DNA from: an uncultured bacterium
GTDB taxonomy: Bacteria; Zhuqueibacterota; QNDG01; DTFT01
Assembly: GCA_963736115.1 (NCBI GenBank)
Contig: CAVTNR010000001.1
Location: 65,479 to 129,478, forward strand
Length of the DNA stretch: 64,000 nucleotides
Direction: 5' to 3'
Part shown: positions 4,082 through 29,843 of the stretch, in pieces
How the letters are laid out: every line of letters begins with the position of its first letter
Numbering within the stretch: position 1 is the first letter of the stretch
Position numbers and translations under genes: made by a program
The notes under the pieces: model-generated
What the model saw: the letters and a program-made list of their open reading frames with translations, nothing else
What the model was told of the DNA's origin: nothing
Databases searched by the model: none

Positions 4082-5722
4082 TTACCGATAGAGGCTTAAC
4101 AGGTTGTCCCGCACACAAGAAAGCGCCGCATCGCCGCCAATGCCCGTCTTTTGATCGAATTTCACTTCGTATGATTTTCCGGTATTCAGATGAACGGCTA
4201 TGATGGTTAGAATGCCGTCGATGTCGAGCTTGAAGATCACATCGAACTTGTGAAATCCTTCCGGTTTGGGCTCGACATTCTCGATGGTCAGCTCGCCGAT
4301 GGGCGTGTTCTCGAAAACAAACTGGCCTTCTCCTTGGTAAATCGACACCTTGATTCTCGTGACATTTTCAGGATTGGTGATATTGGAGATCTTCACTTCG
4401 ATCGGAATGTAGCTGCCCTGCGCGATTATCCGTACGCATTGGCCGCCCGCGACTCCGATTCCGATCGAATGCTCCGTGATCAGGTGGATCTGCCTGTCGT
4501 CCAAGGACTGATCGTTGAATGTCAACGATTCCCTCCGGCGCTTGATGTCGAATCCGCCTTCGGTGGAGTCGAACCGCCTGGCCAGTATCGCCGCGCCCCG
4601 AGCCGCTGCAGTAGCCGGATTGATTTCACCGCGGATGAAACCATCGTCCTTCTTGAAATAATCCCGCAGCATCTCCCTGATCTTAGGGATTTTACTGGAT
4701 CCCCCGACCAGGAGGACCGCGTCCACCTGGTCTCTTTCGATGCCTTTCTGTTCCCTGGCGTTGTTGATGGCCATATCGACATAGTTAAGGGATTTGCGAA
4801 GGAGTCCGTCGATCAGAGAAAGCATTACGCCCCGTGACAGTACCAGCCGGACGCCGGGTTTAATTGATTCAAATACAAGAGTTGTGTACTCATTGAAGGA
4901 CAGGGAGATTTTAGCATATTCGGCGATCGATTTGAGATTCGCCTTCGCCTGCCAGTCCGAGCCGACATCGATTCCCTGCTTGCCCAGCTCCTCGACCGCC
5001 CATTCCCCGATGGCATCATCGAAATCCACGCCGCCGAGACGCGGGTCACCGGATGTCGCGATGACGCTGAGATTGCCCGTTTCCATCCGGACGATGGACA
5101 CGTCAAACGTCCCGCCCCCGAGATCGTACACCAGATAGGTTTTTTTCTCAGCTTCCTCCCGGTCCACTCCGTAGCAGATGGCCGCGGCTGTCGGGTCCGG
5201 GATGAGCTGCCTCGGATACAGCCCGGCGAGCAGGGCGGCTTCTTCCGTCGCCTTCTTTTGAGGCTCCATGAAGTAGGCCGGCACGGTCACCACCGCGTCG
5301 TGGATTTCCTCCCCGATTTCCCGTTCGGCGACTTCCTTCATCTTCATCAGGATGAAGGCGCTGATTTCCTGGGGCAGCATCCATTGGCCAGCGAAAAAAA
5401 CCTTCACGGGATCCCCGGGCTTGAACACATTTTGGGCATTGAACCGTTCTAGGGATCTATTATTGGGCATGAATAGCTTACCCATATCCCGCTTGATTTC
5501 GATTATGGTGTCCTCTGGACGGACGGGGAAATTGCGCTTGGCGGCAGCGCCCACAATGACCTTGCGAAGCATCGGGTCCGTGCTGACGACCGAAGGGGTC
5601 GTTTCGAAATTGGTGTCCGATTCCGGATTCCGGAGAATTTCAGCCTGTTCAATATGGGTATTATAGGAGGCTACGGCCGAATACGTCGTACCGAGATCGA
5701 TACCGATTACTTTGTGATACAT
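4082..5722 (-). CDS. Hsp70 family protein, short paralogue (546 aa)
   Basis: Hsp70 signatures [22 protein letters not shown] and [13 protein letters not shown] at 5722 follows a GGAGGG RBS. Lacks the C-terminal lid/tail. Confidence 0.92.
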   Translation of the reverse strand: MYHKVIGIDLGTTYSAVASYNTHIEQAEILRNPESDTNFETTPSVVSTDPMLRKVIVGAAAKRNFPVRPEDTIIEIKRDMGKLFMPNNRSLERFNAQNVFKPGDPVKVFFAGQWMLPQEISAFILMKMKEVAEREIGEEIHDAVVTVPAYFMEPQKKATEEAALLAGLYPRQLIPDPTAAAICYGVDREEAEKKTYLVYDLGGGTFDVSIVRMETGNLSVIATSGDPRLGGVDFDDAIGEWAVEELGKQGIDVGSDWQAKANLKSIAEYAKISLSFNEYTTLVFESIKPGVRLVLSRGVMLSLIDGLLRKSLNYVDMAINNAREQKGIERDQVDAVLLVGGSSKIPKIREMLRDYFKKDDGFIRGEINPATAAARGAAILARRFDSTEGGFDIKRRRESLTFNDQSLDDRQIHLITEHSIGIGVAGGQCVRIIAQGSYIPIEVKISNITNPENVTRIKVSIYQGEGQFVFENTPIGELTIENVEPKPEGFHKFDVIFKLDIDGILTIIAVHLNTGKSYEVKFDQKTGIGGDAALSCVRDNLLSLYR

Positions 5723-6051
5723 TTTAATCCCTCCCAATAGATGGGAACATGCAGAAATTTATCGGTACAGGATTCTATCACTAGGGGATCAGATGGCGAT
5801 TCATAAAATCGGAGCAAGGAAATGCCATAGACGGCAGGCTATACCGAAAATACAAGAAGGTGGCTTTCGCGGAAATATAAGGATGTCTTTCACGCTGACG
5901 ATCGTGTCTGTGGCCTTGTTGTTCTAGTATTTTAATCGATTTAGAATAGCAGAAGAGATGCGTATCAAAATCGTATTGAACCGAATGTTCGTTGAAAGTG
6001 GAAATCTTTCTTCCATGTATGCCAGATATTCTGAATGAATGTTTGCGGTAC

Positions 6052-9000
6052 TCACATGGTTTTGAGCACGTCCTTGATGTTGTTCAGCAATTTTACCGCC
6101 TCTGTTTTCATTTCGTTGTCCGGCGATTCGTGAATGACCCTCTCGAAATATGATGCCGCCTTTCGCAATTCAGACTCTCCCCGATCGCCGGTTCCGGCAT
6201 GGTATTTCTCGGCTGCAGACTGGAATAAACAGAACGCGTAATAATAAACCGCGTGCAGATTGTCCTTGTCCAGGTCCTGTATCTCCTCGAAGCAGGGGAG
6301 AAGATCCCTGCATTTATCAGGAGTGTCCAGCCTGTCCACGGGGGCCAGAGCCGCGGCGACCATGAGCTGACGCTTGTTCTCTATAATTTTTGAGAGAATT
6401 TCGGGCTCAGGCCTGGTTTCTTCATCGCCCGACGATTCCAGGGAACGCAACGCTCCATCTATGTCTTCGTCGATAAGCGCGATCAGCGAATGCGCTTCTT
6501 CAGGATTGCCTTTGATCCATTGATTGTAAACACCCAGTAATTGCTGCGCGGTCCTGAGGATGTCCGGACTGCTCTCCAACTCCTTCACGAGAAGATCCCG
6601 GGCAGTCCGATATTCCTTCTTCTTTATCGCATCGGCGACAAGCGCGGATCCCTTTCTGTCGGATAGCATCTCCCGGCACTGTTTGACGCCTTCGACGCTG
6701 ATACCATGCTTCAAGCATCTTTCCAGGTGGGGGATCGCCTCCGCGGGTTGTTCGAGCTGGGAAAAAAGGAATGCGACAAGACGCGCCGGTCCGGTTAACT
6801 CAGGGAAATCTTTGCACCAGGGTTCGAGATCTGAAATAATCTCCCGGATTTTTTCCTCAGTCATCGGAGTTTCTTTCTGATACAACGCGTTCACTGAGTC
6901 AGGATAGAATGGCCTGGGGTCATCCAACAGTGTTGCCAATTGCCTATTGTTTTCATCTGGACTTTTTGCCCACTCGTTGGATATTTTCCGCCAGAACTCT
7001 TTATGGCGCGGCAACGAGGCTCTGATCTGTTTAAATCGGGCACTGTCCGATTTAGAAAAATGGTCGCACAGATGGATGAACATATCTGAGGGATGAACGT
7101 GTCCAGAGTCTTGATAATGACGGGCGAGGTTTTCAGTTCATTTGCGATACCGTTTGCTGCGGCTTCGACGAGCTCCTTCTGAAATTGCGTCGGGATATCG
7201 TTCAGCCGGTCGAGAATAAGGAGAGAGTCAATCGATTTTATTTCTATACCCCAGTCAACTTCCCCCTGTTTGCTGAATTCTTTGTCATATCTCCAAAGTT
7301 GGGAGAAACCGAAAAAAAACAAGAATTTAAGCCTGTACACGTCCTCAATCCATTCGATGAGATGGCTCTCATCGGCGTGGTAGTTCGGATTGTTCGCCAG
7401 AGTCAGCCCTTCCGTCGTTTCACAGAAAGAAAGGGCAGACTGAAGGCGCGAAACGCATGTGCTGCGGAATCCCCTTCCGATCCGTTCCGGCAATTCCTGG
7501 CACACGCGGTCGATGAATTGGTCCAACATATCTTTGTATCCGGTTTTTACCTGCTGGGCATGCTCCCCGCCATTTTTCTTTCTGTCTGTTTCGCCAGTCG
7601 GATCCTTTTGAAGGGACCGGTCACGGCCCAGTAGGAGAACTGGAGTCCGCATTTCGAACCAGCGGTTCAGGAATTCGGCCTGCTTGTGTGCCACAAATTC
7701 CCGAAGCAGGCCCGGACTGTTGAGGAGATCGATCAGTTTCCGGACGCGGCCCTTGTGGTCTGGTGTCTGGTCCTTAGAATCCCATAAAAATCCGTTCGCG
7801 AATGCCCATGCAAAATTTTTATGGAAATCAGACCGGGCCAAGGCTGAAACACGGGGGTTGTCCGTCGCGATCGCGTGGAAATAGAGGACTTCACAATACG
7901 ATTTCCAGGATAGCAATGTCTGACCGTGATCGGTCGAAGTCAGTGTGTCGCATACGGCGATATTTTTCAGCGCAGGCAGGTACAGACGGTCGATGTGCAG
8001 GCATTTTTGCCAAAGCAAACGGGCCCGGCGGCTTTTTCCGAGGCGATGAAGGGTGGTGGCTGCCTGCATCAAAACAGACATCTCGAGTAATTTCAGCTCA
8101 GGAAGGCCGCGTTGTTCCCCCGTATAGGCGTCAAACGTGGACAGACTGTGATCGATGATACTGTCGACTTCATCGTCGACCGCCTGAAGCGTTTGCCCCA
8201 GGCCTTCGGGCCCCGAAAAAGAGTTCGGTTCGATTTTCCGTCTCGGGGAGTCGGTTCCACCAACTGCAGGCTGCGCAACTTGGTTTTGAGCGGGAAGGGC
8301 CAATTTGACCAGGTGTCGGCCGAAGCGACCCTGAGCGGTCAGATGTTCCTTGAACCGGGATTCGAGTTCAGTCGCTTTCTTTTCAAGCGTCTTGTCCAGG
8401 GCTGTCATCCGCCGGGCCTCGGTGATGCGCAGGATGGCCGCTTCGTTTTGTTTCGGAAGGGAATTGATGAATAGCCTGATTTCCAGCGCGAGCGTCGCCT
8501 GTTCGGGTGTAAGCGTTCCGGTCTGACGGTCCTCGGTCGTCATCTGTTTCAAACGGGTCCAGTACGAGGCGATCTTTTCCGATGTCCCGGTCGATTCAAT
8601 CCAAAGCGCATCCAGGACGTCGGCCGGAGACTCGAGTGATCCGGGCGTTCCTTCTCGAGGAAGGAGCCGTGATCGCCGTAGACTCGATCTTGCCGGACCA
8701 TTCCACGAATTTCGGTGAAGCCGAATCCGCCGGTTTGTCGGGCTTGATCGGCATGGAAGCCAGCTTGGCGCCGATCCGGGCATGGATCTTTCTCAGGTTG
8801 GACGGCGGATTCAGCTCATTGAAGGCTTTTTTACATTCCTCCATTTTCAACGTGAACGCGTTGCGTCTCGTTTCCGGGGAAGCGGAAGGCCGAAGAACGG
8901 CGTCCAGTTCATCGGATGGAATCCCGAGTATCTGTTTCTGGAGCCGTTCGATGCCCGAGAGACCGTTTGACGCCGATTCCTGAAGCCGGTTCAGGGCTGC

Positions 9001-10371
9001 GGTGAAGATCACGTGGTCCTTCACCACCAGCGCGGCGGCTTCTTTGGCCGCAGCGGATTGCATCCTGGGCTCGAGATCGCCCTTTAACAGGTCGAATCCC
9101 TCCTGCGCCAGGTTCTTCAGATTCTGATGGGACGATTCCAGCTGATTGATGATGTCGCGGGCCGCTTCCGGCGTGATGCGCTGGATCTCGGACGATGGTG
9201 CGGCCTCGACAATGGCCGGTGGGGGAGGGGCGTTCAGTTTGTTCGCAGCGCTGATCAGTTTCCGGATCAACGCATTCGATTTTTCGGCGGTCTCCGGTTC
9301 GGATTCCGGATGGCGGGATGGATCGAGCAGTTGTTTGGCGGACCGGTATGCGCTGCTGGCGGGGAACTCGATTTTCCGCCAGAGCAGGCGTTTATCATGG
9401 ATCAGTGCGATGATGAGAGGCGGCAGCCTGCCGCCGGATAACGAATCGGCCAGAGAACGGGGCAGATCCTCGGCCGGCATCTCAAAAAGCGAACAGATAT
9501 GGTCCAGAAGGACCATGGCTTCAGGGCATTCCTTCACCTCGATTTTTTCCTTCAATTTCCGGATGGAAGAGACAGGGTAACCGATGATCAGCCATTGAAC
9601 CGCGCTGATGACGAATGCCGGTATCCCGGATTTCCGTTTCCTGCTCCGTTCCAGAATATCCCCCAGCAGCGGGGTTAGGGTCTCCATCCGCTTGCGGCTG
9701 GCTTCTTGCTCCAGATGCCGCTCGGCTTCAAGGTCAATAACGCCCGACCACCGGCATTCGTCCTCGCCGCTGAACCGGTTCATGGGCCCCGCGTCTGGTT
9801 CGGACGTTTCCTTTTTGGAAGGATCTCCCTTCATGCCGGAAGGCATCGGCGCCGGCTGATCCGATTTCCTTGCTTCGGCTTCAACTGAGGCCAGGCTTTT
9901 TGGGGGTGTGAAATTGAGCAGATCCTTTTCGAATGTATTCTCTTTTCCACGGATCTTCGAGATGATCCGATCGGCTTTTTTTCTCAAACCGTCCGGTTCG
10001 TACTCAGTTCGGCCTTTGTACCCATCGTTCAATTCATGATGCAGAATGGCGATGTGCGCCCAAAGCCGGTGGCTGGTGGGGCACAGCTTGACGGCATCCT
10101 TGAGCCATCGGCAGGCCGTTTCCAAGCTTCCGAGCGATATATAGAGACGAGCCAGATGATAGGAGTAACGGGGGTTCGTGTCGTCGATCCTGCGAGCTTC
10201 CAGAAGAAGGCGGATCGCGTCTGGAACGGGCGTTCGGGGGTGAAGCGCAAGGCGGAACAGGGATTCCGCCAGAGCCTCGGCGGATTCAAAGGAATGGCTG
10301 CGCTTCCGCTCTTCCCTGAACTTCTCGATAGCCCGATTGAGCCGCTCGGTGTCATAAACCAGTTTTTTCAT
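6052..10371 (-). CDS. Large TPR/helical-repeat protein (~1440 aa), interrupted by two compensating frameshifts (~8655 and ~7085)
   Basis: ORFs 8596-10371, 6891-8783 and 6052-7083 overlap and read as one protein; the first and last share a frame. TPR-like segments include YSYHLARLYISLGSLETACRWLKDAVKLCP and AVYYYAFCLFQ. Confidence 0.72.
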
Positions 10372-10372
10372 G

Positions 10373-12097
10373 CTACGCCTTTCCGAAGAGGGACTGTAGC
10401 CGTGATCCGTCCGAAATCTGAATGCCTCCGGTGGAGCCGAGCGCCAGGGAATCGATGCGGGGGTTGAAACTCAGAATGCCTGCGGCATGCGTGTATACGA
10501 TTTGGCCGTTCTTGAGAAGGGCATAGGTGTGGTCAGGATAAACGAATGAGACGTAGTGATCTTCATCCTGCACGCCGATACAGTAAGGCCTGGCGCCCTT
10601 TGTCGCATGGAATTTGATTCGCGGTACCAGCTGTTCGTCCACGAAAAGGCCGCTGCCGGTCTCATCCAAAGCAAGAATTCGATTTTCGGAGGGCATCGCA
10701 TGGGATATGTTTGCCAGATTGGAATGCCAGGGTGTCATCTTCCATTCGGCTAGAGAATACTGGTACAGTTTCTTTTCGCCGATCATGACAATATGGTCCT
10801 TGAAGCGTTTCATCCCGATGATGGAACGTTCCACCGGGAATTGTCGGACTGGCTGGTTCTCATGATACACGCAGAAATGACCCTGAAAATCGACAAGGCA
10901 GACGACCCGTCCGTCCGACTGGAAATCAAGGATTCCTGCCGGATGGCTGAACGACAGGCTTTTCTCACAGGAAGAGGAGTCGATCCGGACCATGTCGCCG
11001 TTCCACATTCCAACCATTACCTGTTCGCCGATGAGAATGCAATTCCCGGGAATTGCATACGATGGATTGCCCGGTTGTAATTGGATTTCCTTGCATTCAC
11101 CGGTTTCCCGAATCAGAAAGATGTTTCCGCACCAGTCGGCAAGTGCTATCAAACTGCCGGTGCATTGAATTTTTTTCATCTTCGAATGTACACGGACTTT
11201 GCCCAATAATTGTCCAGACAGGTCGAATACCCGGATATCGGTCAGATCGACCACGATGAACGCCTTACTTGTTTCGAAGAAATGGACTTGGGTGTTTTCT
11301 GGAGACCGGCCATATGGAACGGAAACGCCAGGACCTGGCGGAGGAGGTGGTGGTGTAGATACGACCTCGAAAGGATTGCTTGATGATGATTTATACCCAT
11401 CGGAACTGGCCGTAATGATGACATGACCGACTGAATGCCGGAAGGACAGGTCATTAAATACCGCAACCCCCTGGGATGTCTTCTGTTTGAGGGTACCCTG
11501 AAATCCATCTATATTTGCTGTCAATTCAACAATTTGGTCTTCTGAGCCGGGTTGTCCCCGGTCGGAGAGTGAAAGGCTTATTGGAGGTAATGTATTGTGA
11601 ATGACGACGTTGCCCAAAGGGGCTGCCCATTCAAGTTGTGGTACTTCACTGGTTATATTCAAACCCAAATCATGAATCAGTCGTGACAGCCAATGATCTG
11701 GATGTTTTTTTACGTCGAGATAATGGATATGATTGATCGACATGGGAATCAGGGATTTTGCCTCTTGATCGAGAAGAATAGGAAATATCTTGCCGGCGCT
11801 CCCGGTCGGATCAATTTGCAAAGTCTTTGTCAGTTCCCATTGAGTCATTTGTTTGTTAAAATATAGCGTGGAATAAACCAGAATTACGCATCGGCTCCGG
11901 AAAATAGCTTTTGCAAGAGCGTCGAGATATGATTGAGAAATTTGAAGACCGTTATCTTCATCCAGGAAAATGCCCGGTCTTTTTCCTTGTGGCGTTTTAC
12001 ATTGAGTCAATGGGATGTACAGGGAATTTTTAACCCAATCGTACTCTTCGCGCGCATAGCTGATGAAAATGTCGTAGGTGAATTCGCTGTTTTCCAT
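10373..12097 (-). CDS. TIR domain + Ig-like domain + beta-propeller protein
   Basis: TIR motifs YDIFISYARE, IFLDED, AIFRSRCVILVYS and QWEL. Then an Ig-like segment (GVAVFNDLSF), a poly-Pro linker and WD40-like blades (LADWCGNIFLI, VGMWNGDMVRI). Confidence 0.87.
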   Translation of the reverse strand: MENSEFTYDIFISYAREEYDWVKNSLYIPLTQCKTPQGKRPGIFLDEDNGLQISQSYLDALAKAIFRSRCVILVYSTLYFNKQMTQWELTKTLQIDPTGSAGKIFPILLDQEAKSLIPMSINHIHYLDVKKHPDHWLSRLIHDLGLNITSEVPQLEWAAPLGNVVIHNTLPPISLSLSDRGQPGSEDQIVELTANIDGFQGTLKQKTSQGVAVFNDLSFRHSVGHVIITASSDGYKSSSSNPFEVVSTPPPPPPGPGVSVPYGRSPENTQVHFFETSKAFIVVDLTDIRVFDLSGQLLGKVRVHSKMKKIQCTGSLIALADWCGNIFLIRETGECKEIQLQPGNPSYAIPGNCILIGEQVMVGMWNGDMVRIDSSSCEKSLSFSHPAGILDFQSDGRVVCLVDFQGHFCVYHENQPVRQFPVERSIIGMKRFKDHIVMIGEKKLYQYSLAEWKMTPWHSNLANISHAMPSENRILALDETGSGLFVDEQLVPRIKFHATKGARPYCIGVQDEDHYVSFVYPDHTYALLKNGQIVYTHAAGILSFNPRIDSLALGSTGGIQISDGSRLQSLFGKA

Positions 12098-12148
12098 TGA
12101 GGTCCTCTCGCGGCTGATCGGGAAACCTGAGAAAATTGAACGACCGGT

Positions 12149-13018
12149 TCAGTACCGGCCGAACCGCTTCAACGAAGATTCGAAATGCCCTTCCCTGACG
12201 AAATCCATCAATGCGTTGATCCGGCAGGGGATGAACGGATGACCCGCATTCATGTTGATCGGTCCAGCGACCGGGGCCGAGACGAGCAGCGGATATTGAA
12301 CCGAAAGGTATTTCTCAAGATCCACGTTACGGGCCAGTTCCACGCTTTTCAGGGCGACGGACAGCAGAGCAGAGGCGGCCTGTTTCCAGTCGCCGCACAT
12401 CAGAAGACCGATCCGGTCGCACCGGATTTCCATGCTTCGACAGTTGGCCATGACCTGGCGGTACACATTTTTCCATTCCTGGCCGGGAATGACGCGGTTC
12501 AGGACGTCTTCCTGGTTGTTGTCCACGAGATCCCGGATCAGGAATCCCAGCGACATTTCGCGGCACCATTCAGAGGTGTAGCTCAACAGATGCCCAGTTT
12601 CATGCCCGATGACGAAGGCCAATTCGATCTCGTTGAGGTTTTCAACCAGCCGGGTTCCGAGCAGCATGATGGGCCGTTTATGACTGACCACACTGACCGC
12701 GGACCAGGAATCGATGCCCTTACGGCCAAGATCCGAGACGACATAGACCTCGGGCCTGGCCCAGCCTGATTGACTGTACAGGTATTCGAACAATCGGTCC
12801 AGTCCGGGCAGCAACCGATAATCGACCAGCAGGCCGCCATCCAGTCCGATGATCCGTATTTTCTCGGTCCACTCGTCATGCCGGGATTCGTAGCGATCCA
12901 GGCCCGGCACCTGGGCCTCAATCCGGGACAGTGGGACGGATTCCCAGAGAAGCTGGAGATCGATAGCGCCCAGCCTGGGGAGCGATTGGGTATCGATGTC
13001 TTTCGAGATGAGTTTCAA
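12149..13018 (-). CDS. M48 family zinc metallopeptidase
   Basis: HExxH motif in ELAFVIGHETGH, followed by EIRCDRIGLL and HPFIPCRI, as in M48/HtpX-like peptidases. TTG start. Confidence 0.87.
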   Translation of the reverse strand: MKLISKDIDTQSLPRLGAIDLQLLWESVPLSRIEAQVPGLDRYESRHDEWTEKIRIIGLDGGLLVDYRLLPGLDRLFEYLYSQSGWARPEVYVVSDLGRKGIDSWSAVSVVSHKRPIMLLGTRLVENLNEIELAFVIGHETGHLLSYTSEWCREMSLGFLIRDLVDNNQEDVLNRVIPGQEWKNVYRQVMANCRSMEIRCDRIGLLMCGDWKQAASALLSVALKSVELARNVDLEKYLSVQYPLLVSAPVAGPINMNAGHPFIPCRINALMDFVREGHFESSLKRFGRY

Positions 13019-13030
13019 GGCTGTCTATTC

Positions 13031-15130
13031 CTATAATACACTATTGATTTGGGAGAGAATACCTTCGTACTGGGATACCATCTGCGACAGTGCATCCATC
13101 GCTCCCTTCGAAGAAACCTTCATTTGAGCCAGGGATGCAGCGGATTTGGCGTTGGATACCCTGCCCCGGAAATTTTCCAGATCGTAACGACTCGTGAACT
13201 TCGAACCGGACTTCAACACTCCGATGATGGACAGGAATTCCTTCCCGTGTTCGTCGACGACAGCCTTGTCCTTGAACTGCGCCCGGAACGAGGCGTTCAT
13301 GTCCTCGACCTGTTTGAGGTTGCGCTCCACTGCCTCTTCCAGCTGGTCGAGATTTTTTCTGGCGACATCCGTGATCAGCTTGCGGTTCAGGGCCGGAATC
13401 TCCCGCTTCAGTTTCCGCAGATCCTCGGTGATCTCTTCCAACTTGGTCTCTGAGTCGATTCCTGATTTCGCCCGTTCCATGATGGCCTTGAAACGCTCGC
13501 CGGCCTGCTGGATTACCGCGGCATCATTTTTCTGATCCTCGATGATCTTGCTCAGGGATTGCAGCGCTTCCAGATTGCGGTCAACCGCCTTGTCGAGCTG
13601 GGCCAGCGTCGCTTTAGAGTCATCACCCGTAATGTCGGTCAGAGCCCGAGTGGCCTGTTTTTTCACTTCTTTCAACCGCTTGAGGAGCTCCTCGAACACC
13701 TGGGGGCTGTCGATTCCCTGCTTGGCCCTTTCCATGATGGATACGAATTCAGTGATGATGGTGTTGACTCTCCGGGTCTCCTCCTGACGCTTGATCAGCA
13801 TCGAACGGATGCTCTGAAAGAAATGGATCGCCTGCTCGACCTGGGCGAGTAGTTGGGCCGGAACGGGCTGACCCGGATCGGCTGCGGCCTGTCGGGCAAA
13901 TTGGCGGGTTGTATCCAGTTCGGAAAGAACCGTATCAATGTCCGGGAGGCGCTGGTTCTGGAACGCGTCGTTGAACTGGCGGAATCGGCAGGCGGCGGTC
14001 AGGAAACTGAGAAATGGATATTCTGGAACGTACCGAAGCGCTGTGAATAAAATGCGCTCAGCGCCTGTAAAATCGCCTTGATTCATATGCTGTTGGGCCA
14101 CTTGGACCTCGTCCCGTACGATTAGGGACTGGAGTTTCTCCCGGTCCGCGGGCGATCCGGCCATCTTCACTTCGGAAATTTTCTTCGAGGAACCAAGCCG
14201 ACCCAGCAGACCACCCGTTGAGAACTGCCTGAGATAGGCCTCGAACAACCGGGCTTCAGTGGTTCCCTTGTATCGGTCATCGACCTTCCCGAGCGCCCTC
14301 AATGCCCGCCCGAATTCCTCCTTTTTGAAATGCTCGATGGCCGGATGCAGTGCCATGTACAGGAGCTGGGATTCCAGATCGTTTTTCAAGCCGTTCAGAA
14401 TCGACGGTACGTTGTGCCCGGCGACGCGGATCCCTTCCAGAACGCACTCGTACGCGGCGGCTGGGTTCCGCTGCCCCATCAGGAGGATCGCCTTGAAGGC
14501 ATAGTATTCGGCGCGGCTTGGATCGAGCTGCATCAGTTCGGACAGCTGGTTGAACAGCATGTTCGCGCTGAGGAGCATGAGAATGGGAAACTTGACGTAA
14601 ACCTGGCCGCAGGCTTTCGTCTTCAGCATAGCGATCAGATCGGCGAGCGGTTTTCCCGTATGGGCGCCGTCTATGGAGGCGAGGATCCGCAGGGCGGTGA
14701 TCTGCGTGCTGAGCGTTCCGATCGGAGAATCCGAGTTCAGGATGCACAGCGCCTTCAGGTACAGGGCCTCGGGATGGGCTGGTTTCTTGGCCAGGTAGGC
14801 ATCGAGCTTCTGAACGGCTTCCTGGTATTCTTTTTTCTGAATGTGCGCTTTCGCCTGCTGCAGCAGTGCGATGTCCACGTCGATGAGACCGCCTACCTGA
14901 CGGAAGGCATCGTCCGGCAGTATTTCCCCCAGACGCAGCGACTCATCCGACTTGGCACTGGCGGCCATTTTGTTGAGCTCCGCTTGGACGTCGAAGCCGT
15001 TCATCTTGGCCTTGCTGGGGTCGATGACCGGACCCTTCAGCACGAAACCTTCCTTGAACTCCGGCACCTTAGTGGAGACCTTCATCAACTCCGGTGCTTC
15101 AACGAACTGGCTTTCTTTAACGGCGGTCAT
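13031..15130 (-). CDS. TPR protein with three C-terminal 85-aa helical repeats
   Basis: TPR-like segment AKAHIQKKEYQEAVQKLDAYLAKKPAHPEALYLKA. IMERAK(Q/S)GIDS recurs at a 255-nt period. Confidence 0.82.
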   Translation of the reverse strand: MTAVKESQFVEAPELMKVSTKVPEFKEGFVLKGPVIDPSKAKMNGFDVQAELNKMAASAKSDESLRLGEILPDDAFRQVGGLIDVDIALLQQAKAHIQKKEYQEAVQKLDAYLAKKPAHPEALYLKALCILNSDSPIGTLSTQITALRILASIDGAHTGKPLADLIAMLKTKACGQVYVKFPILMLLSANMLFNQLSELMQLDPSRAEYYAFKAILLMGQRNPAAAYECVLEGIRVAGHNVPSILNGLKNDLESQLLYMALHPAIEHFKKEEFGRALRALGKVDDRYKGTTEARLFEAYLRQFSTGGLLGRLGSSKKISEVKMAGSPADREKLQSLIVRDEVQVAQQHMNQGDFTGAERILFTALRYVPEYPFLSFLTAACRFRQFNDAFQNQRLPDIDTVLSELDTTRQFARQAAADPGQPVPAQLLAQVEQAIHFFQSIRSMLIKRQEETRRVNTIITEFVSIMERAKQGIDSPQVFEELLKRLKEVKKQATRALTDITGDDSKATLAQLDKAVDRNLEALQSLSKIIEDQKNDAAVIQQAGERFKAIMERAKSGIDSETKLEEITEDLRKLKREIPALNRKLITDVARKNLDQLEEAVERNLKQVEDMNASFRAQFKDKAVVDEHGKEFLSIIGVLKSGSKFTSRYDLENFRGRVSNAKSAASLAQMKVSSKGAMDALSQMVSQYEGILSQINSVL

Positions 15131-15141
15131 GGAGATTCCCT

Positions 15142-15369
15142 TTATTCTAGATCGATATTCTCAGGCTCCGGCACGTTTTCGAGTAGATGTTCGGCGGACC
15201 GCCGGCATAACTGGTATTCCTTCTCCTGGGTGATATCCGTCAGCTCAAGGATCGAGGATACGACGTTCATCTGTTCCGTCGAGAATTCCTCTGCTTTCGT
15301 GACGCTTTCGGAGCTCACAACCAGCGCTTCGAGCATCTTTTTCCTGTTGAGAGACTGGGTTTTGGCCAT
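15142..15369 (-). CDS. Small acidic hypothetical protein (75 aa)
   Basis: ATG lies 3 nt after the upstream stop with a GAGG RBS, and the ORF fills the gap in the operon exactly. Confidence 0.75.
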   Translation of the reverse strand: MAKTQSLNRKKMLEALVVSSESVTKAEEFSTEQMNVVSSILELTDITQEKEYQLCRRSAEHLLENVPEPENIDLE

Positions 15370-15372
15370 GGA

Positions 15373-17426
15373 TCACCTCTTTTTCCTGGTTTCCTTCGGG
15401 GCGGCCGGTTTGATCCTTCGCGTTTTCGCGGGTGGGCCTGCTTCCAAAAGGAGGATTTCCGCCGGCTCCGGGGTTAAAATACCTTCCTTTTCATCCTCCT
15501 CTTCAGGCAGCAGCACTTCGCCGGTGTAGACCAGAACCCGGTTGACTTTCGCCTCCACCTGATCGTAGGTGTCCTTGATCCGCTGAGTGTTTTCCGAAAT
15601 CTCTTTCATCGATTTTTCCAATTCCTCTTCGGCCTTTTTCCCCTTTCCGGCGGGGTCTTTCGATGCGCCGGCCTTGATCGCGCCGATGATGGCGCCCATC
15701 CGCTTACGGATGAATTCCTGCCGGGTGGAAAGGTTCTGAATGGTCGGCCCTTCGCCGCTGGTCGCCTGATCTTCGGTTATCATTTCCCCAAGGAGATGCC
15801 TGAAATGCGGGAAGGCTTCCAGGCGATGGATCAACTTTTCCTTCAGCTCCTCCTTCAGTACCTGAGGGACGCTTTTATTGTCCAGATAATTATTGACGAT
15901 CGAAAAGTATGTTTTGATGGAATCCTTCTGGAGTTCGTCCAGTTTTCTTTCCCGCTTGATGATGAGGTCCACCTCGGGAACTAGCGAGCTCGATTTCTCG
16001 AGCATGTCCAGCGACTCCTCCCGAAGCGCATTGTGGAAGAAGAAATAATCGACCAGCCCCTGAATCAGTTTGGGGTCGGGCATTTCGGAATCGATGGCCA
16101 TGACCTTGTTCAGGCGATCACGAAGGCTATCCCGTTCCGCAGGGGTCAGGCCCGATTTTTCGTCTTTTTCGCACCATTCGTGAATCAGGGAGACCGCATG
16201 CCAGAGAAGGACGTTCCGGATCAGAAGGTCCTTGTCGTCAAGTTTGCGCTCGCCTTCACCCGCGTATTCATCGCCGCCGGATTTACCGGTTTTCGCCTTT
16301 TGCGATTGAGGATCCCCGTAGTCTTTTTCGAGCTTTTGTACAATACCCATCAGGGGTTTCCGCAGCTGGCTCCGTTCTCCGGAACACCACCGGCAGAGCA
16401 GAAGTCCGATTTCGGCGTTCATCGTCGAACGCTTCTCCTGCGTCGCCCGTGCTTCCGCCGCCTCGAAATATTCCCTGGCCTGGAGGAATTCCTTGTTGAA
16501 AAGCGAAACAATGCCCAATGTGACCTGGTGATCGCTGATACTTCCGGGAACCCGGTCTGCATGCACGCCCAGACTCCGTACGCGGTCAAAGTACTGAACA
16601 GCCTCCTTGATTTCGCGCTTTTTCCAGTGTTCTTTCCCGAGATTGAAGCAGGCGATGCTCATCAGCTCCTTCGATTTGAGAAAATCCTGGAGTGCATCCT
16701 GGTTGGTATCGTATATCTCATAAGCGTACTTGTATTTCTCCACTTTTACTTTCGCCCAAAGGTCCAAATACTGAACCGCCGGATCCGATAGGTTTACCCT
16801 AGACAGGTCCTCTATCGTCCCGCTGCAGTCGTCTCGCAGGGCGCGGAGGTAGGCGCGCGCAAAATAGGCCTCATCGAGGTCGTTCTGTTTGAGCCCTGAG
16901 GTGATGGCCTTTGTCAGCAGATCCTCCGCGTCCGTATACTCGGTTCTCCTCTCCTGATCGATGATCCGGAGCGCCTGAAGCAGGGGTTTTCTTTTCTTCG
17001 CGGGCTGAATGATCGAGAAAAAAAGAATGAGCCCCAGAATCACCAGGATCAGAAAACCGAGCACGGTACCGCCGATCAGGATCAGACTTCTGTCTATTCC
17101 GGCGAACAGTCCCTTTTTCTCTCCGGCTGATTCTTCGGTCAGACCGGTTTCTGCGGCGCCGCGCCCGGAAGGGGATACTGCCGGAGTTCCCGATGGTCCG
17201 GTTTCGGGCGGAACGGAAGCCGAACTGTCGGCCGGGCCGACGGTTGTCCATGTGTGGTCCGGCTTGAGCAAGACCTGTGCGCGCCCTTCGTCCGGGCGAG
17301 TTCGTCGGCCACCGACGGAGCGGCGAGTATCGCCACAAGGAGAAGGATCGTCAGCCCCATGGCTTTCGTCCGGCTATTTTGTCCCATCGGAAGTTTGTTT
17401 CGGAAAATCCGCCTTGATCGCCGCAT
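15373..17426 (-). CDS. Membrane-anchored TPR protein with signal peptide; frameshift at ~17282
   Basis: ORF 17139-17426 supplies a signal peptide (GLTILLLVAILAAPSVA) that joins ORF 15373-17271 at ARTKG/QVLLKPDHTW. TM helix LILIGGTVLGFLILVILGLILFFSII is followed by TPR-like repeats (AYFARAYLRA, ACFNLGKEHW). Confidence 0.75.
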
Positions 17427-17456
17427 TTTCCCCTCTTTCCTTTTTTCTGGATACCG

Positions 17457-19039
17457 TTACCGTCTGCAGTCTGTCAGCATTTTCTCGAGCTGGAGGATCC
17501 GGCTGCCGAAACGCTCGATGACCGCGGGCTCGACGCGCCGCGGATCCGTGACGGGATATCGTGCGACCGTGGACAAGGCGTTTTTAATCCCGTCCAGGAA
17601 GGCGCGAGCAGCCTCGAACTTGCCGGGGCTCTCCGGGATTTCACCGATCAACGCTTCCGAGTACAGCAGGGTCCGCGGAAATTCCCACCACATGAAGGTT
17701 GGCTGCCCTCGGGACGGGTCCCCACTTGCACTGGATGAGTAGTAAAGGTACGGGTGAAGAACCTGCTGGGCATTGACAAACTGGCCCTTTTTAATGAAAT
17801 AGGACGTCACTTCCATGAACAGTCTGTCCCTATCGGTGGTTGGAAGCGCATGATAATCACGCCACGCCATGGCGATCATCTTGGCCGGGCTGTCCATCTG
17901 AATCTTCGACGGCGCGTCGGTGTGGTCCGGACCGGTCCAGTTGAGAAGAATCGCGAGCTGCAGCCGGTGGGATTCGATGTTCCCGGCGGGAGCCGATTGG
18001 ACGGCCCGTTCGAGCCATTCCAAGCCAGCAACCGCGTCCTGAAGATCCTCCTTTGCGATCCTTCCGGCTAGTAGAAGGAGATCGAACCGGCTCTCTCCCA
18101 GACAGACATCCCCGATGAAATCGATGGCCTTTTGAAACCGTTTTTTAGCCCGGAGGTCTTCCACGACGGCTCGGGGATCCAGGCGGTCTGCGAGGTCCCG
18201 CAGCTTGACGGCCGCCTGGGCTGGATCCGCGTCTGCTCGGATCCGGGGATCTGGATCCAGTGCGGTCCGTACCATGTGCACGACTTCCGGATACAGATCG
18301 ACCCGGTCGATCCAGATAGGCATTCTTTTCGTGAGCCCCTCCGGCTCGAACAGGGTGCTGGACGCCCCTTTTTGAATGAGCAAGAAGGGGTCTTCCGTCG
18401 CGCTCCATGAAAAGAGGCATTGCATCATCATAACCCCGCACACGTAAATATCGAGGTTTCGGTCCCGGATCATTTTTCGGTTCCCCCGGATGAGTTCGGG
18501 GGCCAGAAATGGGATTCGGGAGGGTTCGGCGAGCAGTGTTTCGAAACGCGGCCAGTACCCCAGGACGGAAGCGCCAGCAGAACCGGCCACTGATCCTTGA
18601 ATACGATGTCCGCAGGCATGGGGTAATTCACTTCCCCGTTCGTCTCCCACCAGACGGGCAGGGAACCGGCGACCTTCGACATGAGGAAAAGGCGGTTCCG
18701 TGGGTCGGCTTCGGACAGCAGTTCGAGCATGCTGCGTCCGCTTGTTTCATAGGCCACGTAGAAAAACAGGCTGCCCTGCACCGTCACGTCGCCGGTCTCC
18801 ACGATCTGCGCCAGTCCCTGCCTTTGCGGTTTGCCGATCCACCCGTCTATTTCCGAGCGTTGGGTGAGCGACAGGACATCGTCGATCGGAAGGAGGCGGA
18901 AATACCGACTTCCGGATGCCTCCCGGTACACATAACCCCGCAGGCTCGGGCCCACGTATTCGAGCCGCTCGCCGGCCCTGCCGACCTGTAGCGTCGCGGG
19001 CGGGTTCAGCGGGTCATTTTTTCGCTTTTGCGTAGACAT
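17457..19039 (-). CDS. Ser/Thr protein kinase-like (probable pseudokinase) + TPR; frameshift at 18558-18561
   Basis: Joins ORFs 18470-19039 and 17457-18650 at a G4 run. Kinase C-lobe motifs FLAPEL, DIYVCG and ALDPDPRIR are present, but no HRD or DFG. The true start may be the ATGA overlap at 19017. Confidence 0.72.
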
Positions 19040-21056
19040 CTTCGAGTGTGTCTCCCAAGTCTTCCAGCTTCTCGCCGGTAATTCCGGAATTCAGGGCTGA
19101 TATGAAATCGCTGAACGCCTTGAGTAGGTTTGTGTCCGTCTCCTGGAGCAGATGTTTCTGCGTCCGACGGACGATGGATTTGAACTGTTCCGGAACGGGG
19201 AGTGCGGGTTCCGGAATTCCTCCCGCGGCCGGTGCTCCCTGGGCAGGCTCGGGCTTTACCGGAGTGGTGGGGGAACCGGGAGAAGGCGTCGCCGGTCCCG
19301 GCGCTGGCTGTTGCGGCTGGGATCCGGGTACGGCTCCAGGCTGCGGGGGAGGGGTGAAGCCGCCCGGACCGGATGGACCCGGCTGCGGGGGGACCTGGAC
19401 ACTGCCGTGGGCATATAGACCGAGCAGTGTGTTTCGCTTCTGGATCAAGGCGGCGTCTCCCCCGATGCCCGTCTTCTGCTCGAATTTCATTTCATACTGC
19501 TTCCCGGTCTGCACGTGGAAGACCACCATGGTCAGGAGTCCGTTGACGTCGAGCTTGAAAGTCACTTCGAACTTGTGAAATCCTTCCGGCTTGGGATCGA
19601 CGTTCTCGATGGTGAGCTCGCCGATCGGTGTGTTCTCGAAAACAAACTCGCCTTCTCCCTGAAATACAACCGCTTTGATCCGCGTCGCATTCTCCTGATT
19701 GCCGAATATGTCGTTCTTCACTTCGATTGGGATGTTGCTGCCTTGAGCGATCATCCGCACGCACCTACCGCCCGCGACGCCGACCCCGAGCGAATGCTCC
19801 GTGATCAGGCGGATCTGCTGGTCGTCCACGGACTGGGCGTTCAATTTCAACGATTCATTCCGGCGCTTGATGTCGAATTCGCCCTCGGTGGGAGCGAATC
19901 GCTTTGCCAGTATCGCCGCGCCCCGGGCGACCACGGTGTCCGGATTGAGTTCGCTTTTGACGAAGCTGTCATCCTTCTTGAAATAATCGAGGAGCATTTC
20001 CTTGACCTTGGGGATTTTGCTAGAGCCGCCGACCAGGAGAATCGCATCCACCTGGTCCCGGTCGATCCCTTTCTGCTCCCGGGCGTTGCTGATGGCCTTG
20101 TCGACGTAAGTGAGGGACTTGCGAAGGAGTCCGTCGATCAGCGACAGAAAGACATCTTTCGTCAGGACCAGCTGGAGCTCGTGTTTAATTGATTCGAGCG
20201 ACATCGTCGCGGATTCGTTGTAACTCAAGGCGATTTTGGCCGGTTCCGAGACCGATTTGATCTTCGCCTTCGCCAGAGGGTCCGCGCCTACATCGATTCC
20301 CTGTTTGCGGAGCTCTTCGACCGCCCATTCCACGATGGCATTGTCGAAATCCCCACCGCCGAGACGCGGATCGCCGGCCGTCGCGATGACGTTCAGATTG
20401 CCCGTTTCAACCTGGATGATGGACACGTCAAAGGTTCCGCCCCCGAGATCGTACACGAGATAGGTTTTTTTCTCCGTCTCCTCCCGGTCCACTCCGTAGC
20501 AGATGGCCGCGGCTGTCGGTTCCGGGATGATCTGCCTCGGGTACAGCCCGGCGAGCAGGGCGGCTTCTTCAGTCGCTTTCTTCTGCGGCTCCATGAAGTA
20601 GGCGGGCACGGTCACCACCGCGTCGTGGATTTCCTCCCCGATCTCCCGCTCGGCCACTTCTTTCATCTTCATCAGGATGAACGCACTGATTTCCTGGGGC
20701 AGCATCCATTCCCCTGCAAAAAACACTTCCACAGGTTGTCCGATCTTGCGGGCGTTCTGGGCCCGGAATCGTTCCAGGGCGTTGTTTTTCTCTGAGAACA
20801 GCTCGCCCATTTCCCGCTTGATTTCTATCACGGTGTCCTCGGGGCGGACGGGGCAATTTCGCTTGGCAGCAGCGCCCACGATGACCTTGCGGAGCATCTG
20901 GTCCGTGCTGACGACCGAAGGGGTCGTTTCGGGATTGGTGTCCGATTCGGGGTTCTTGATGATTTCAGCCTGTTCAGTATAGGTATTATAAGAAGCCACG
21001 GCCGAATACGTCGTACCGAGATCGATACCGATCACCTTGTGCATTTTGTCGTTCAT
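19014..21056 (-). CDS. Hsp70 family protein with Pro-rich linker and helical tail (680 aa)
   Basis: Motifs [45 protein letters not shown] and [11 protein letters not shown]. Substrate-binding domain ([13 protein letters not shown]) followed by a Pro/Gly-rich segment. Confidence 0.94.
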
Positions 21057-21872
21057 GATTTTGCTCCTTGACTGGTGTGTGCGGCGCTGTCCTTGTGCGA
21101 ACGGTTTTTATCACGGTCCGAAACCGGACGGGTCTTCCCGATAATGACCCGGCAGGGCCTAACCAGAACCTGGCCCGCCCTGTACCCGGATTGTTCGACC
21201 CGGATCACCTTTCCCTCATCACCTTCGCCGTACCCGAGGCATTCCATGGTCAGAGGATCGAAATCAGCCCCGGGCTGAACCTCGAAAGGGGTATAACGGA
21301 GGGCCTGGGTGATGCCGGTGAGAAGATCGAGTATGGAGTCCGTATTTTTCAGGAACTCCTTCTCGTTTTCGCTGCCTGAGTAATGACGTTTCATCGACTT
21401 CAGGGATTCCATGGCCGGGATCAGCGCGTTGAAAGTCGAACGTCCGATGAATTCCTTGCGGTCTGAAACGCAGGTTCTCCTTGAACCGTTCCAGCTCCAT
21501 GCCGACCGAACGGGAGAGGGACTCCTGGGCGGCCTGAAGCGACGAAACGGTTGCGATGACCTGCGTTATTTTACCTTCCAGATTGGAAACCATCCGGTAG
21601 AGGCCGACCATGTCTTCGGCCAGTTCTCCCAGGGTTTGGAGCAGGTCATCATTCTTACCGTCGCGGATTCCCGCCCCCTTGAAAAAATCGACCGTGAGGG
21701 TCTGTTTGGACAGATCCAGATCGATCGGTTCCTCACTCCCTGCGGCGCCCACCGGGTTCTGCCCGACGGCGGTTTTCGATTCCTTCCTGGGGGAGGTCCC
21801 GCTGGCCGATCCGCCGGATGGTTCGTTGTGCGGAATGTCCGGCTGATCCGCACTGGGCTTTGTTTTGTTCAT
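21053..21872 (-). CDS. GrpE-like nucleotide exchange factor; frameshift at ~21470
   Basis: The coiled-coil N-part (ORF 21264-21872) joins the GrpE C-terminal motif PGADFDPLTMECL...VIRVEQSGY...LVRPCRVII (ORF 21053-21412). ATGA overlaps at both ends. Confidence 0.8.
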
Positions 21873-22489
21873 GGTTCCTCCTCGTCGATCCGCTTGTTGT
21901 ATTCAAAATCCGTGTTGAAAATCCTCCGGGTCAGGTCGCTGGGATGAAAGCAGTGGAGATTTTTGATTTCTTCGAAAAAACGGGAGAGTTCCTTGCGGAT
22001 ATAGATCAGCTTTGTCCGGTAACCGCTCAACACGTCCGCCCGGAAATCCTCGAAGCGGAGCAGGATGCAGGGAGGGTTAGACAGGTCGTACTTTCGTCGA
22101 TCCTCTCCTTTCTCCAGCAAGATCAGGTTGATCTCGTTCACTTCTTTGTCGATGCGCAGGATGTCGGATTCGATTTTTTTGAAATCGGGATCGGCCTTAA
22201 GGGCTTCCTTCTCCAGATCGAAGATTTCCCCGTTCAGTTTTTTCAGGGCCGCGGGATCGGATTTTTCGGAGTTTTTCTTCATGGTGTCCAGCCGGCTTCT
22301 GGCGGATGGAAGACCGGGGACGGCCTCGAAGATCTTGGCCTGCCGCGTGACAAGCGCCTGTCTTTGAGCATTCAGAGACTGCAAAAATTCTCCCTTGGCG
22401 TCCATGATTTCATTTGCGGTCGCGTCCGGGGTTAGTCCCAGTTTGGCGTAGGAAGTGTTTCGGCTGAGGATCACGGGGTAATTGAACAT
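21869..22489 (-). CDS. J-domain-like protein lacking HPD, with coiled-coil insertion
   Basis: YAKLGLTPDATANEI resembles J helices I-II and EVNEINLILL...DRRKYD resembles helices III-IV. CAGGGAGA lies upstream. First gene of the operon. Confidence 0.68.
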   Translation of the reverse strand: MFNYPVILSRNTSYAKLGLTPDATANEIMDAKGEFLQSLNAQRQALVTRQAKIFEAVPGLPSARSRLDTMKKNSEKSDPAALKKLNGEIFDLEKEALKADPDFKKIESDILRIDKEVNEINLILLEKGEDRRKYDLSNPPCILLRFEDFRADVLSGYRTKLIYIRKELSRFFEEIKNLHCFHPSDLTRRIFNTDFEYNKRIDEEEP

Positions 22490-23048
22490 AAGACACCTGA
22501 TCTCCCTGTGAATGGACGACTTGTCGTTGTTTTCGATGATGGGGTTCGATAAGGAGATGGAAAGGAGGCGTTATCTGTCGGCCATCCCATAGGCATGAAT
22601 AAAAAAAGGAATGGCCCACCGCTGACTCGGAATTTGCAGCGTTGGAAATCCTCACTCCCTCCCCAGAATAATGGTTTTCGAAAAAACGAAAAGAAGAGCC
22701 CGACAAATCTCTATAAATAAATAATAATAAAACGATGAGTATACAGGTATAGGAATAATGTTTGCAAAATATTGATTATTTGTTTGAAAATCAAGAAGAA
22801 TGTCCGGCATTTCGACATTAAAAGGCATAATATCCAGAATATATAATCATATAGAGTTTGAAAGCGAGCGGGATTCCGCTGTCGCCAAAATGTAAACAAT
22901 TATAATTAAACAGATTACGAAACAACAGAAAGATATTCCTCATTCTGTGTCCGCAGGGGTGGTTCTGGCATTTTTCCAAATTACTATCAATAGTAACGAC
23001 ATCTGAAGAAGAGGAAATAATCCAGGCGTTTGAAATCAGCCCACGGTT

Positions 23049-26322: not shown

Positions 26323-26337
26323 GGCGTATCATCCCAC

Positions 26338-27351: not shown

Positions 27352-27368
27352 GGCGTCCTCCTTATTGT

Positions 27369-29636: not shown

Positions 29637-29681
29637 ACGTTCTCCTGTTCTGGGTGATCCAGCCACCCGATCCGGATAAGG

Positions 29682-29696: not shown

Positions 29697-29843
29697 GTTT
29701 TATAATGACCTGACCGGGTTGCAGTTAGGCGACGCATGGGGTTGAGTTTTCCCGGTTGATTTATATGGGACAATGCACTAAATTGTAAATAATACCGCGT
29801 GCAGATCAACTGCCGGACCCAAACACCACCCCGCGGGAGGATC

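Follow-up and report, generated by a model that had tools for sequence, protein, structure and literature searches.

A rare bacterial gene cassette combines a private Hsp70 and GrpE with pseudokinase, TPR and TIR proteins and may be a conflict system

HSP70-like proteins have been described in several bacterial conflict systems, and the subject of this paper is a gene cassette with a private Hsp70, at positions 4082 to 22489 of a 64,000-nucleotide stretch of DNA from an uncultured bacterium (contig CAVTNR010000001.1; the whole stretch that was analysed is called the window below). GAP1-N2 DO-GTPase conflict systems include HSP70 and GrpE as well as FNIII proteins that carry a fused DnaJ or TPR (Kaur, Burroughs, Iyer & Aravind 2020, eLife 9:e52696, PMC7159879), and in tripartite systems an HSP70-like NTPase reportedly takes the place of the STAND NTPase (preprint 10.64898/2026.10.19.760177). 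Moreover, lidless DnaK-like domains have been described as fusions to EACC1-protease defence modules (preprint PMC12642450), and Hsp70-like CnuD proteins are described in the CoCoNuT paper. Besides these chaperone-bearing systems, TIR-TPR pairs have been presented as stand-alone defence units (BcTir/Tpr, preprint 10.1101/2023.05.26.542521), and Thoeris effectors that bear TPR have been reported in the Thoeris VII/VIII preprint (10.64898/2025.12.03.692087). None of these nearest published systems has the partner set of the cassette.

This paper describes the gene content, the relatives and the probable function of the cassette, the arrangement of which is far beyond chance, with one gene order recurring across phyla at 25-85% protein identity. 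With confidence little better than even, the cassette is read as a multi-protein conflict system, most likely for anti-phage defence or cell suicide, in which a private Hsp70/GrpE would be the nucleoside triphosphate (NTP)-driven switch. This reading is based on the conservation of the cassette, the separate clade of its Hsp70s, the invariance of TIR Glu88 and of the Hsp70 ATPase motifs, the pseudokinase, the patchy distribution and the published HSP70 precedents, as well as on immune-type neighbours in four genomes (those of the window and of the relatives labelled G028, G115 and G1233). An earlier note on this DNA had proposed a chaperone-gated defence or cell-death complex, a proposal that is partly supported by the present data.

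Gene content and comparison with described systems

Ten genes run in the same direction on the minus strand from 22489 to 6052, as the earlier note had described, and the minus-strand open reading frames (ORFs) agree with its gene list; an additional gene, encoding a second Hsp70 (Hsp70b), follows downstream (5737-4082, minus strand). The accompanying claim that no gap exceeds 51 nucleotides (nt) holds for most junctions, which are overlaps or gaps of 1-51 nt, and fails for two: 185 nt separate the kinase-like gene from the membrane TPR gene, and 314 nt, containing promoter-like sites, lie ahead of Hsp70b. In order of transcription the genes are as follows.

21869..22489, minus strand: J-like protein, 206 amino acids (aa), helical; candidate co-chaperone or adaptor
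21053..21872, minus strand: GrpE, in frames 21264-21872 and 21053-21412; Pfam GrpE 36.5 bits on the C-terminal piece 21053-21412 (cut-off 25.8)
19014..21056, minus strand: Hsp70a, 680 aa; nucleotide-binding domain and beta substrate-binding domain, Pro-rich linker, C-terminal helical domain; Pfam HSP70 E 5.1e-118
17457..19039, minus strand: pseudokinase-TPR protein, in frames 18470-19039 and 17457-18650; about 520 aa when read through
15373..17271, minus strand: membrane TPR protein, 632 aa; single transmembrane helix at residues 70-88
15142..15369, minus strand: 75-aa acidic protein with a conserved C-terminal VPEPE.ID.E; 22 invariant positions in five orthologues
13031..15130, minus strand: TPR/coiled-coil protein, 699 aa; N-terminal TPRs, C-terminal repetitive coiled coil; probable accessory scaffold
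12149..13018, minus strand: M48-like zinc peptidase, 289 aa, soluble; Pfam Peptidase_M48 38.3 bits (cut-off 20.3)
10373..12097, minus strand: TIR - middle domain - beta-propeller-like protein, 574 aa, the presumed effector; TIR_2 at the N-terminal start, 52.2 bits (cut-off 28)
6052..10371, minus strand: giant TPR/helical-repeat protein, in frames 8596-10371, 6891-8783 and 6052-7083; about 1,400 aa in sum
4082..5737, minus strand: Hsp70b, 551 aa; nucleotide-binding domain and beta substrate-binding domain only; Pfam HSP70 E 1.6e-109

The GAP1-N2 DO-GTPase systems resemble the cassette in that they are predicted conflict systems of several genes with a private HSP70 and a GrpE to go with it, in some cases with a second, shortened HSP70, and in the DnaJ/TPR modules on partners and the membrane association. 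They differ in the GTPase itself, as Walker A is absent from the cassette proteins of the window and of loci L001, L003, L031 and L032, and PF19993 had no match in the 87%-complete window genome. The Pfam scan, which covered 15 ORF pieces of the window at E <= 0.01, detected no GAP1 or FNIII-repeat protein; the presence of GAP1 models in the Pfam copy used is an assumption, made from the presence of its bpMoxR and DO-GTPase2 models. Moreover, the available text of the GAP1-N2 paper does not list together the pseudokinase-TPR, membrane TPR, TIR-propeller and giant TPR proteins that are the constant partners in the cassette. MoxR and vWA, as in MoxR-vWA ternary systems, are not constant partners of the cassette either.

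The housekeeping DnaK-DnaJ-GrpE machinery shares with the cassette an Hsp70 that has ATPase motifs as well as a beta substrate-binding domain, a GrpE gene directly upstream, and a small gene in the co-chaperone position. In contrast, the cassette Hsp70 has, in place of the lid, a Pro-rich linker followed by a new C-terminal domain, the third gene encodes a protein that lacks HPD, and the operon is shared with TIR, pseudokinase and TPR genes. Among specialised Hsp70s, the E. coli hscA locus lies with the isc genes, and the hscC locus of E. coli K-12 (678000-688000) contains djlB and djlC, encoding J-proteins, and the Sel1-repeat gene ybeT, which makes it a small precedent for a private Hsp70 with repeat partners.

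The EACC1-protease modules are similar in placing a lidless Hsp70-type domain together with a protease in an anti-phage module, predicted or shown. In that preprint they are single chains in which a caspase-like protease and EACC1, a pore-former, are joined to a DnaK-like domain about 50% identical to DnaK, whereas the cassette has a separate Hsp70 gene, a TIR effector and an optional M48 peptidase, with no EACC1 or caspase by Pfam. Thoeris and the TIR-TPR pairs have in common with the cassette a TIR domain with the catalytic glutamate adjoining TPR proteins; unlike in these systems, the cassette TIR has a propeller-like domain on the same chain, and Hsp70, pseudokinase-TPR and membrane TPR proteins are always encoded with it. 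With respect to Thoeris, the PADLOC scan of 20 proteins gave no ThsA model match and a marginal ThsB1 match (E 0.006). The same scan gave no system-level match, and no description of the cassette was found in the literature searched, where supplementary neighbourhood tables may list it, so that the earlier statement that the locus matches no named system stands.

Conservation and distribution of the cassette

Relatives were collected with Hsp70a as the query against a set with a single genome for each species, which returned 31 loci: 26 ordinary dnaK loci (34-39% identity) and 5 closer relatives (41-83%). A metagenome scan with a five-row alignment of the kinase-like domain added three loci, and whole-genome searches added G115, from the window's phylum, and G1233, from the Myxococcota; locus contents were determined by tblastn with all cassette proteins and by Pfam. 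The cassette was thus found at 10 loci beyond the window, in at least four phyla, which bears out the expectation that its homologues co-occur in other genomes. Of these 11 loci, seven (window included) agree in gene order; there is one rearranged and one reduced locus, and two (L004, from the Desulfobaccales genome G169, and L034) are ended by contig limits. No variant with a caspase was seen at any of the 11.

The order that is kept is J-like, GrpE, Hsp70, kinase-like-TPR, membrane TPR, small protein, TPR/coiled-coil, M48 (where present), TIR-propeller and giant TPR. It is seen in the window, L001 (in G028), L002 (in G034), L032, L033 and G115, and in G1233 (L054) from the kinase-like gene onward, where the contig starts. 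The rearranged locus, L031 of Paractinoplanes pyxinae, reads TIR, TPR, GrpE, Hsp70, kinase-like-TPR, membrane TPR and TPR. The reduced locus, L003 of Nocardia concava, contains Hsp70, kinase-like, membrane TPR and TIR-propeller genes and a gene for a 1184-aa TPR protein; GrpE and J-like genes were not found there with the cassette queries.

Among the nine loci that reach the respective positions, the TIR-propeller and giant TPR genes are each present in all nine, the TPR/coiled-coil gene in seven, the 75-aa protein in six (it was not found in G115 with the query used) and the M48 peptidase in five. The core of the cassette is formed by GrpE, the lidless Hsp70 with its own C-terminal domain, and the pseudokinase-TPR, membrane TPR, TIR-propeller and giant TPR proteins. 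Accessory parts are the M48 peptidase, the 75-aa acidic protein and the TPR/coiled-coil protein. The peptidase had been put forward as a core effector, a role that its presence at just five of nine loci does not fit.

The cassette is rare and patchy, even inside one genus. It was detected in 4 of 167 genomes of the window's phylum, in 1 of 401 sampled genomes of the Myxococcota, and, as a clear match, in 1 of 401 sampled Actinomycetota genomes (the query's own genome), with four more matches at 25-28 bits. None of 401 sampled Thermodesulfobacteriota genomes gave a match, which says little, since G169, the carrier of the partial locus L004, also gave none. Within the window's genus, the AAA-RyR and vWA genes that flank the cassette are present in the window's own assembly (G000) and in G028 and were not found in G029, G030 (96% complete) or G031, and the kinase-like gene follows the same presence pattern among these congeners.

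Properties of the encoded proteins

The system Hsp70s form a clade of their own, distinct from DnaK, HscA and HscC. This was seen in a maximum-likelihood tree of 23 sequences (9 system Hsp70s, 12 DnaK, E. coli HscA and E. coli HscC), obtained by a quick search after 15 near-redundant DnaK rows of the 26 housekeeping rows had been omitted. All nine system sequences lie on one side of a branch with a Shimodaira-Hasegawa-like approximate likelihood ratio test (SH-aLRT) support of 100 and a length of 0.99; the branching with housekeeping DnaK that would have counted against the earlier proposal was not seen. The joining of HscA with HscC in this tree is a long-branch pairing and is not relied on. 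Hsp70a is about 35% identical to DnaK, and neither Hsp70a (381.5 bits) nor Hsp70b (355.4 bits) reaches the NCBIfam cut-off for DnaK (TIGR02350, 822.55 bits); Hsp70a is below the NCBIfam HscA cut-off as well.

The ATPase site appears to be complete. The phosphate-binding and catalytic motifs (IDLGTT and the K of [14 protein letters not shown]) are present, and D12, K80, D203, T208 and G343-G344-S345 are invariant in the nine system sequences, at positions that we take to correspond to those in DnaK numbering. In Hsp70a and Hsp70b alike, the Pfam HSP70 match covers only positions 1-501 of the 599 in the profile, so that neither protein has the helical lid. In Hsp70a the matched part is succeeded by a Pro-rich linker, which varies in length between about 20 and more than 200 residues among the relatives, and by a helical C-terminal domain of about 65 aa (VPEQFKSI...LEDLGD.LEDVY, encoded in the 19014-19400 end of the gene) that has no Pfam match. 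This domain is conserved from the Actinomycetota to the window wherever a full-length gene was seen; in L004 the contig end removes it.

Hsp70b is 76% identical to Hsp70a, lacks both the linker and the C-terminal domain, and is placed inside the group of the window, L001 and L002 in the tree. No second Hsp70 gene was found after the giant TPR gene in G028, G034, G115 or G1233, and in G028 the position of Hsp70b is taken by the AAA-RyR gene, 139 nt after the giant TPR gene. The plural "private Hsp70s" of the earlier note consequently applies to the window genome only.

GrpE (PF01025) exceeds the Pfam cut-off in seven loci, window included, with 32.8-51.2 bits in the orthologues of L001, L002, L004, L032 and L033 and 26.1 bits in L031; the GrpE-like gene of G115 was recognised by tblastn only. 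Intact orthologous GrpE proteins are 246-269 aa long.

The label of the first gene product as J-like is weak. Its resemblance to a J-domain is limited to the N-terminal T.Y..LG..P.A...EI..A, corresponding to helix I and the start of helix II, where about 22 residues align weakly; in a PDB profile search the best matches were DnaJA1 J-domains at an E of only 0.025, and hhalign against 11 DnaJ J-domains aligned 22 columns with a weak probability of 17%. There is no Pfam match, and the HPD motif is absent from the J-domain position in all six orthologues. The six aligned sequences share 32 invariant positions, including FHPSDLTR (containing H-P-S-D) in a C-terminal tail that is of low confidence in the AlphaFold2 model. 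That model is a coiled-coil bundle with a predicted local distance difference test value of 72, for which fold searches return generic coiled coils only, and an ESM Atlas search with the protein gave no usable match. The predicted complex of Hsp70a residues 1-560 with the J-like protein scored 0.00, which is evidence neither way.

The kinase-like domain is a pseudokinase, as the earlier note had claimed, with a kinase fold that was confirmed by modelling. The AlphaFold2 model of the orthologous domain, based on eight aligned sequences, has a predicted template modelling score of 0.82, and Foldseek returned PknB and GCN2 as top matches (E 2.6e-9, probability 1.00) among at least 500 matches at E <= 0.001. 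The glycine-rich loop and the APE motif are kept. The assignment as a pseudokinase is made because HRDLKPxN and DFG are replaced by FPMPADIVF and LLALP, so that no Asp is found at the HRD or DFG places in the eight-sequence alignment; the correspondence is drawn from motif spacing in that alignment rather than from a structural alignment. A word-limited protein search with the L001 pseudokinase returned five proteins, and a full profile search of 1.84 billion representatives shows a larger family, with 246 clusters at E <= 0.001, of which 167 reach E <= 1e-10 and 125 reach E <= 1e-30; the length is close to 500 aa in almost all of them, which fits the length of the domain plus TPR.

A scan for transmembrane helices in the window protein and four orthologues identified the 632-aa TPR protein as the sole membrane protein of the operon. 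Its repeat domain is probably cytoplasmic because a KKRK stretch follows the helix. The earlier suggestion of membrane sensing finds no footing in this protein, which has one N-terminal anchor helix and no evident outside domain. TPR Pfam matches in the window's own proteins are mostly under the curated cut-offs, which orthologues exceed: the membrane TPR protein does so in L031, and the TPR/coiled-coil protein, which is weak in Pfam in the window and has only weak coiled-coil-type matches in PADLOC, does so in L033. For the giant TPR protein, TPR_14 is above the cut-off on the first piece, and complete orthologous frames are 1,184-1,292 aa, with single intact frames in G028, G034, G115 and Nocardia. 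The 75-aa acidic protein was also found in L054.

The TIR protein is the presumed NADase of the cassette, as it has both a predicted TIR fold and a conserved glutamate. Its TIR profile matches AbTIR, PdTIR and TcpB (E 3e-14 to 4e-11), and AbTIR, one of the bacterial TIRs matched at E 1e-11 to 3e-14, is an NAD+ hydrolase. Glu88, which we take to be the equivalent of the catalytic Glu, is invariant in all seven sequences; in the alignment with PdTIR (3h16) it falls on the Glu of 'QKEL'. The propeller is suggested by ESM-Atlas features of 0.91-0.93 to WD40/PQQ clusters, which as a feature similarity is a lead only, and PADLOC returned weak single-protein matches only, with PDC-S66 (2.3e-7) above the ThsB1 match mentioned before. 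The M48 peptidase has no transmembrane helix and a mean column identity of 76%, with H139-E140-x-x-H143 and E197 invariant in all five sequences.

Function, flanking genes and alternative explanations

STAND, MoxR or GTPase proteins form the switch in other conflict systems, and in the cassette an Hsp70 with its own GrpE would take this role. The TPR, pseudokinase and propeller modules would make up a scaffold that is anchored on the inner side of the membrane and that senses an invader protein or serves as a decoy for one. The Hsp70 cycle, run with GrpE and the helper that lacks HPD, might either hold the TIR protein inactive or drive its assembly; upon release the TIR protein would oligomerise and cleave NAD+, as depletion or as a signal, and growth of the infected cell would stop. 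In the sub-lineage with the M48, 75-aa and coiled-coil proteins, these may adjust the complex or process it.

Several points weigh against this proposal, in which the role of the cassette is read from its genes. The defence models of PADLOC gave no system-level match. A J-like protein without HPD and with weak J-domain homology offers no evident trigger for the Hsp70 ATPase, and no conserved receptor for a TIR-made signal (ThsA-like) is found inside the cassette. Moreover, the propeller and Ig-like domains of the TIR protein are putative, L003, L031 and L004 are flanked by ordinary genes of metabolism or export and not by defence genes, and the frameshifted copy in the window may be dead.

The regions on either side of the cassette in the window contain the following features.

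1415-4003, plus strand: AAA-RyR protein, 862 aa; AAA ATPase (weak bpMoxR-like match) and RyR; syntenic in G028
22490..23048, minus strand: upstream intergenic region, 559 nt, AT-rich, dividing the first gene from the Clp-MoxR-vWA module; presumed promoter
23049-29666, minus strand: module of Clp-like protein (degenerate first ring), MoxR, vWA and an unknown 377-aa protein; syntenic in G028
29799-31499, plus strand: sigma-54 activator, divergent from the Clp-MoxR-vWA module; syntenic in G028
31912-34446, plus strand: RelA_SpoT - SLOG (LSDAT_prok) - RyR protein, 844 aa, 9.8 kb from the cassette; syntenic in G028

RyR-domain proteins thus flank both sides of the island. In principle, the SLOG protein might serve to read a nucleotide signal made by the TIR protein; it is no part of the cassette at other loci. 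The Clp-MoxR-vWA module was considered as part of the system and rejected, as it lies upstream only in the window and in L001/G028, with tblastn blank in L004, L032 and L033, and its linkage is restricted to the window's genus. GC content falls to 0.519 in the 22001-24000 bin, which covers the region upstream of the first gene. The sigma-54 consensus had 2 matches in the window against 3.3 expected by chance, none of them near the operon or in 22490-23048; Rfam and tRNA scans of the window returned nothing, and a PHROGs search with eight proteins gave no match.

In G115, a stand-alone, convergent TIR_2-TPR gene (515 aa; C62, 300-1847) lies beside the cassette, and a sigma-54-type AAA protein with AAA_22 and an HATPase_c_3 protein are encoded nearby (5353-11036). 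In G1233, genes for a vWA protein of 736 aa and a Tubulin_2 protein of 982 aa (C25, 12971-18175) directly follow the giant TPR gene, and these neighbours recall themes of the DO-GTPase conflict systems. An export-type cluster lies upstream of the partial cassette in L004 (1-7954) and encodes HlyD-family proteins, a PqqD/M50-like fusion, a SecA-like ATPase and an outer-membrane efflux protein.

It is a serious minority possibility that the operon copy of the window is a decaying relic with four real frameshifts, which would be independent of what the family does. The frame changes are located near 21471-21481 in GrpE, near 18557-18575 in the kinase-like gene, and within 8596-8783 and 6891-7083 in the giant TPR gene; these four in 18 kb are absent from the orthologues in G028/L001, G034/L002 and G115, which are single open frames. 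The window assembly is a metagenome-assembled genome of 31 contigs that is 87% complete, and its intact gyrB and secA indicate that indels are not everywhere in the assembly (rpoB, the intended frameshift control, was not in it). On the other hand, its essential housekeeping dnaK (contig C8, 16488-18275) is broken into five pieces by four frame changes in 1.8 kb, which points to local assembly errors, the ORF pieces of the cassette are long and free of further stops, and the remaining seven genes are intact. Indel errors or strain mixing seem to be local in this assembly. One public DNA run with a 0.05 share of words gave scattered near-identical short contigs, none over the four frameshift sites, and no RNA run was listed. 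Inferences on function were drawn from the intact relatives of the window copy.

It is unlikely that the cassette is instead a specialised proteostasis, assembly or stress-signalling machine outside conflict, in which Hsp70/GrpE would fold, assemble or quality-control a membrane-tethered TPR/propeller complex, the TIR protein would be an interaction adaptor or the maker of an NAD-derived physiological signal, and M48 would be a quality-control protease. In its favour, bacteria do have Hsp70s dedicated to one task (hscA and hscC in E. coli), huge repeat proteins may well be clients of a chaperone, the flanking genes at several loci are not of an immune type, and no defence model was matched. 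Such a machine is nevertheless difficult to reconcile with a very patchy distribution even within one genus, with the invariant catalytic Glu of a TIR domain whose profile is nearest, among solved structures, to bacterial TIRs, one of which is the NAD+ hydrolase AbTIR, and with the immune-type neighbours in four genomes, and a conserved dead kinase suits a decoy or scaffold better than housekeeping. That the locus comprises two independent adjacent units, a chaperone module (J-like, GrpE, Hsp70, pseudokinase-TPR and membrane TPR) and a TIR-TPR pair of the Thoeris-like or BcTir/Tpr kind, is very doubtful: stand-alone TIR-TPR defence pairs are known from the two preprints cited at the outset, a separate TIR_2-TPR gene adjoins the cassette in G115, and L031 has its TIR and TPR genes upstream rather than downstream of the chaperone genes, but both halves occur in all nine loci that reach far enough, rearranged and reduced ones included (no search for lone halves was made), the genes overlap or are spaced by 1-51 nt, and the propeller-bearing TIR and giant TPR proteins are orthologous across all nine.

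Within the reading as a conflict system, a bolder suggestion can be made tentatively and with considerable doubt. Plant TIR-NLRs are licensed by HSP90-SGT1, and the cassette might be a counterpart of such chaperone-licensed immune receptors, in which an Hsp70/GrpE without a canonical J-domain would load and unload a membrane-tethered guard-and-decoy complex that controls a TIR NADase. In this complex a pseudokinase would be the decoy and the TPR and propeller parts the sensors, and the HPSD tail motif of the helper and the new C-terminal domain of the Hsp70 could be the docking elements of a non-canonical cycle. If the reading as a conflict system is right, Hsp70, of all housekeeping chaperones the one studied best, would have been copied into a dedicated ATP-driven, immune-like switch beside the STAND, MoxR-vWA and GTPase switches, and the cassette would offer a tractable bacterial model of the chaperone licensing of immune receptors. 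It would also help to explain how an Hsp70 is driven without an HPD J-domain, and would give conserved prokaryotic pseudokinases a role, for example as decoys or scaffolds. Finally, the presence of the cassette in cultured actinomycetes makes the idea directly testable.

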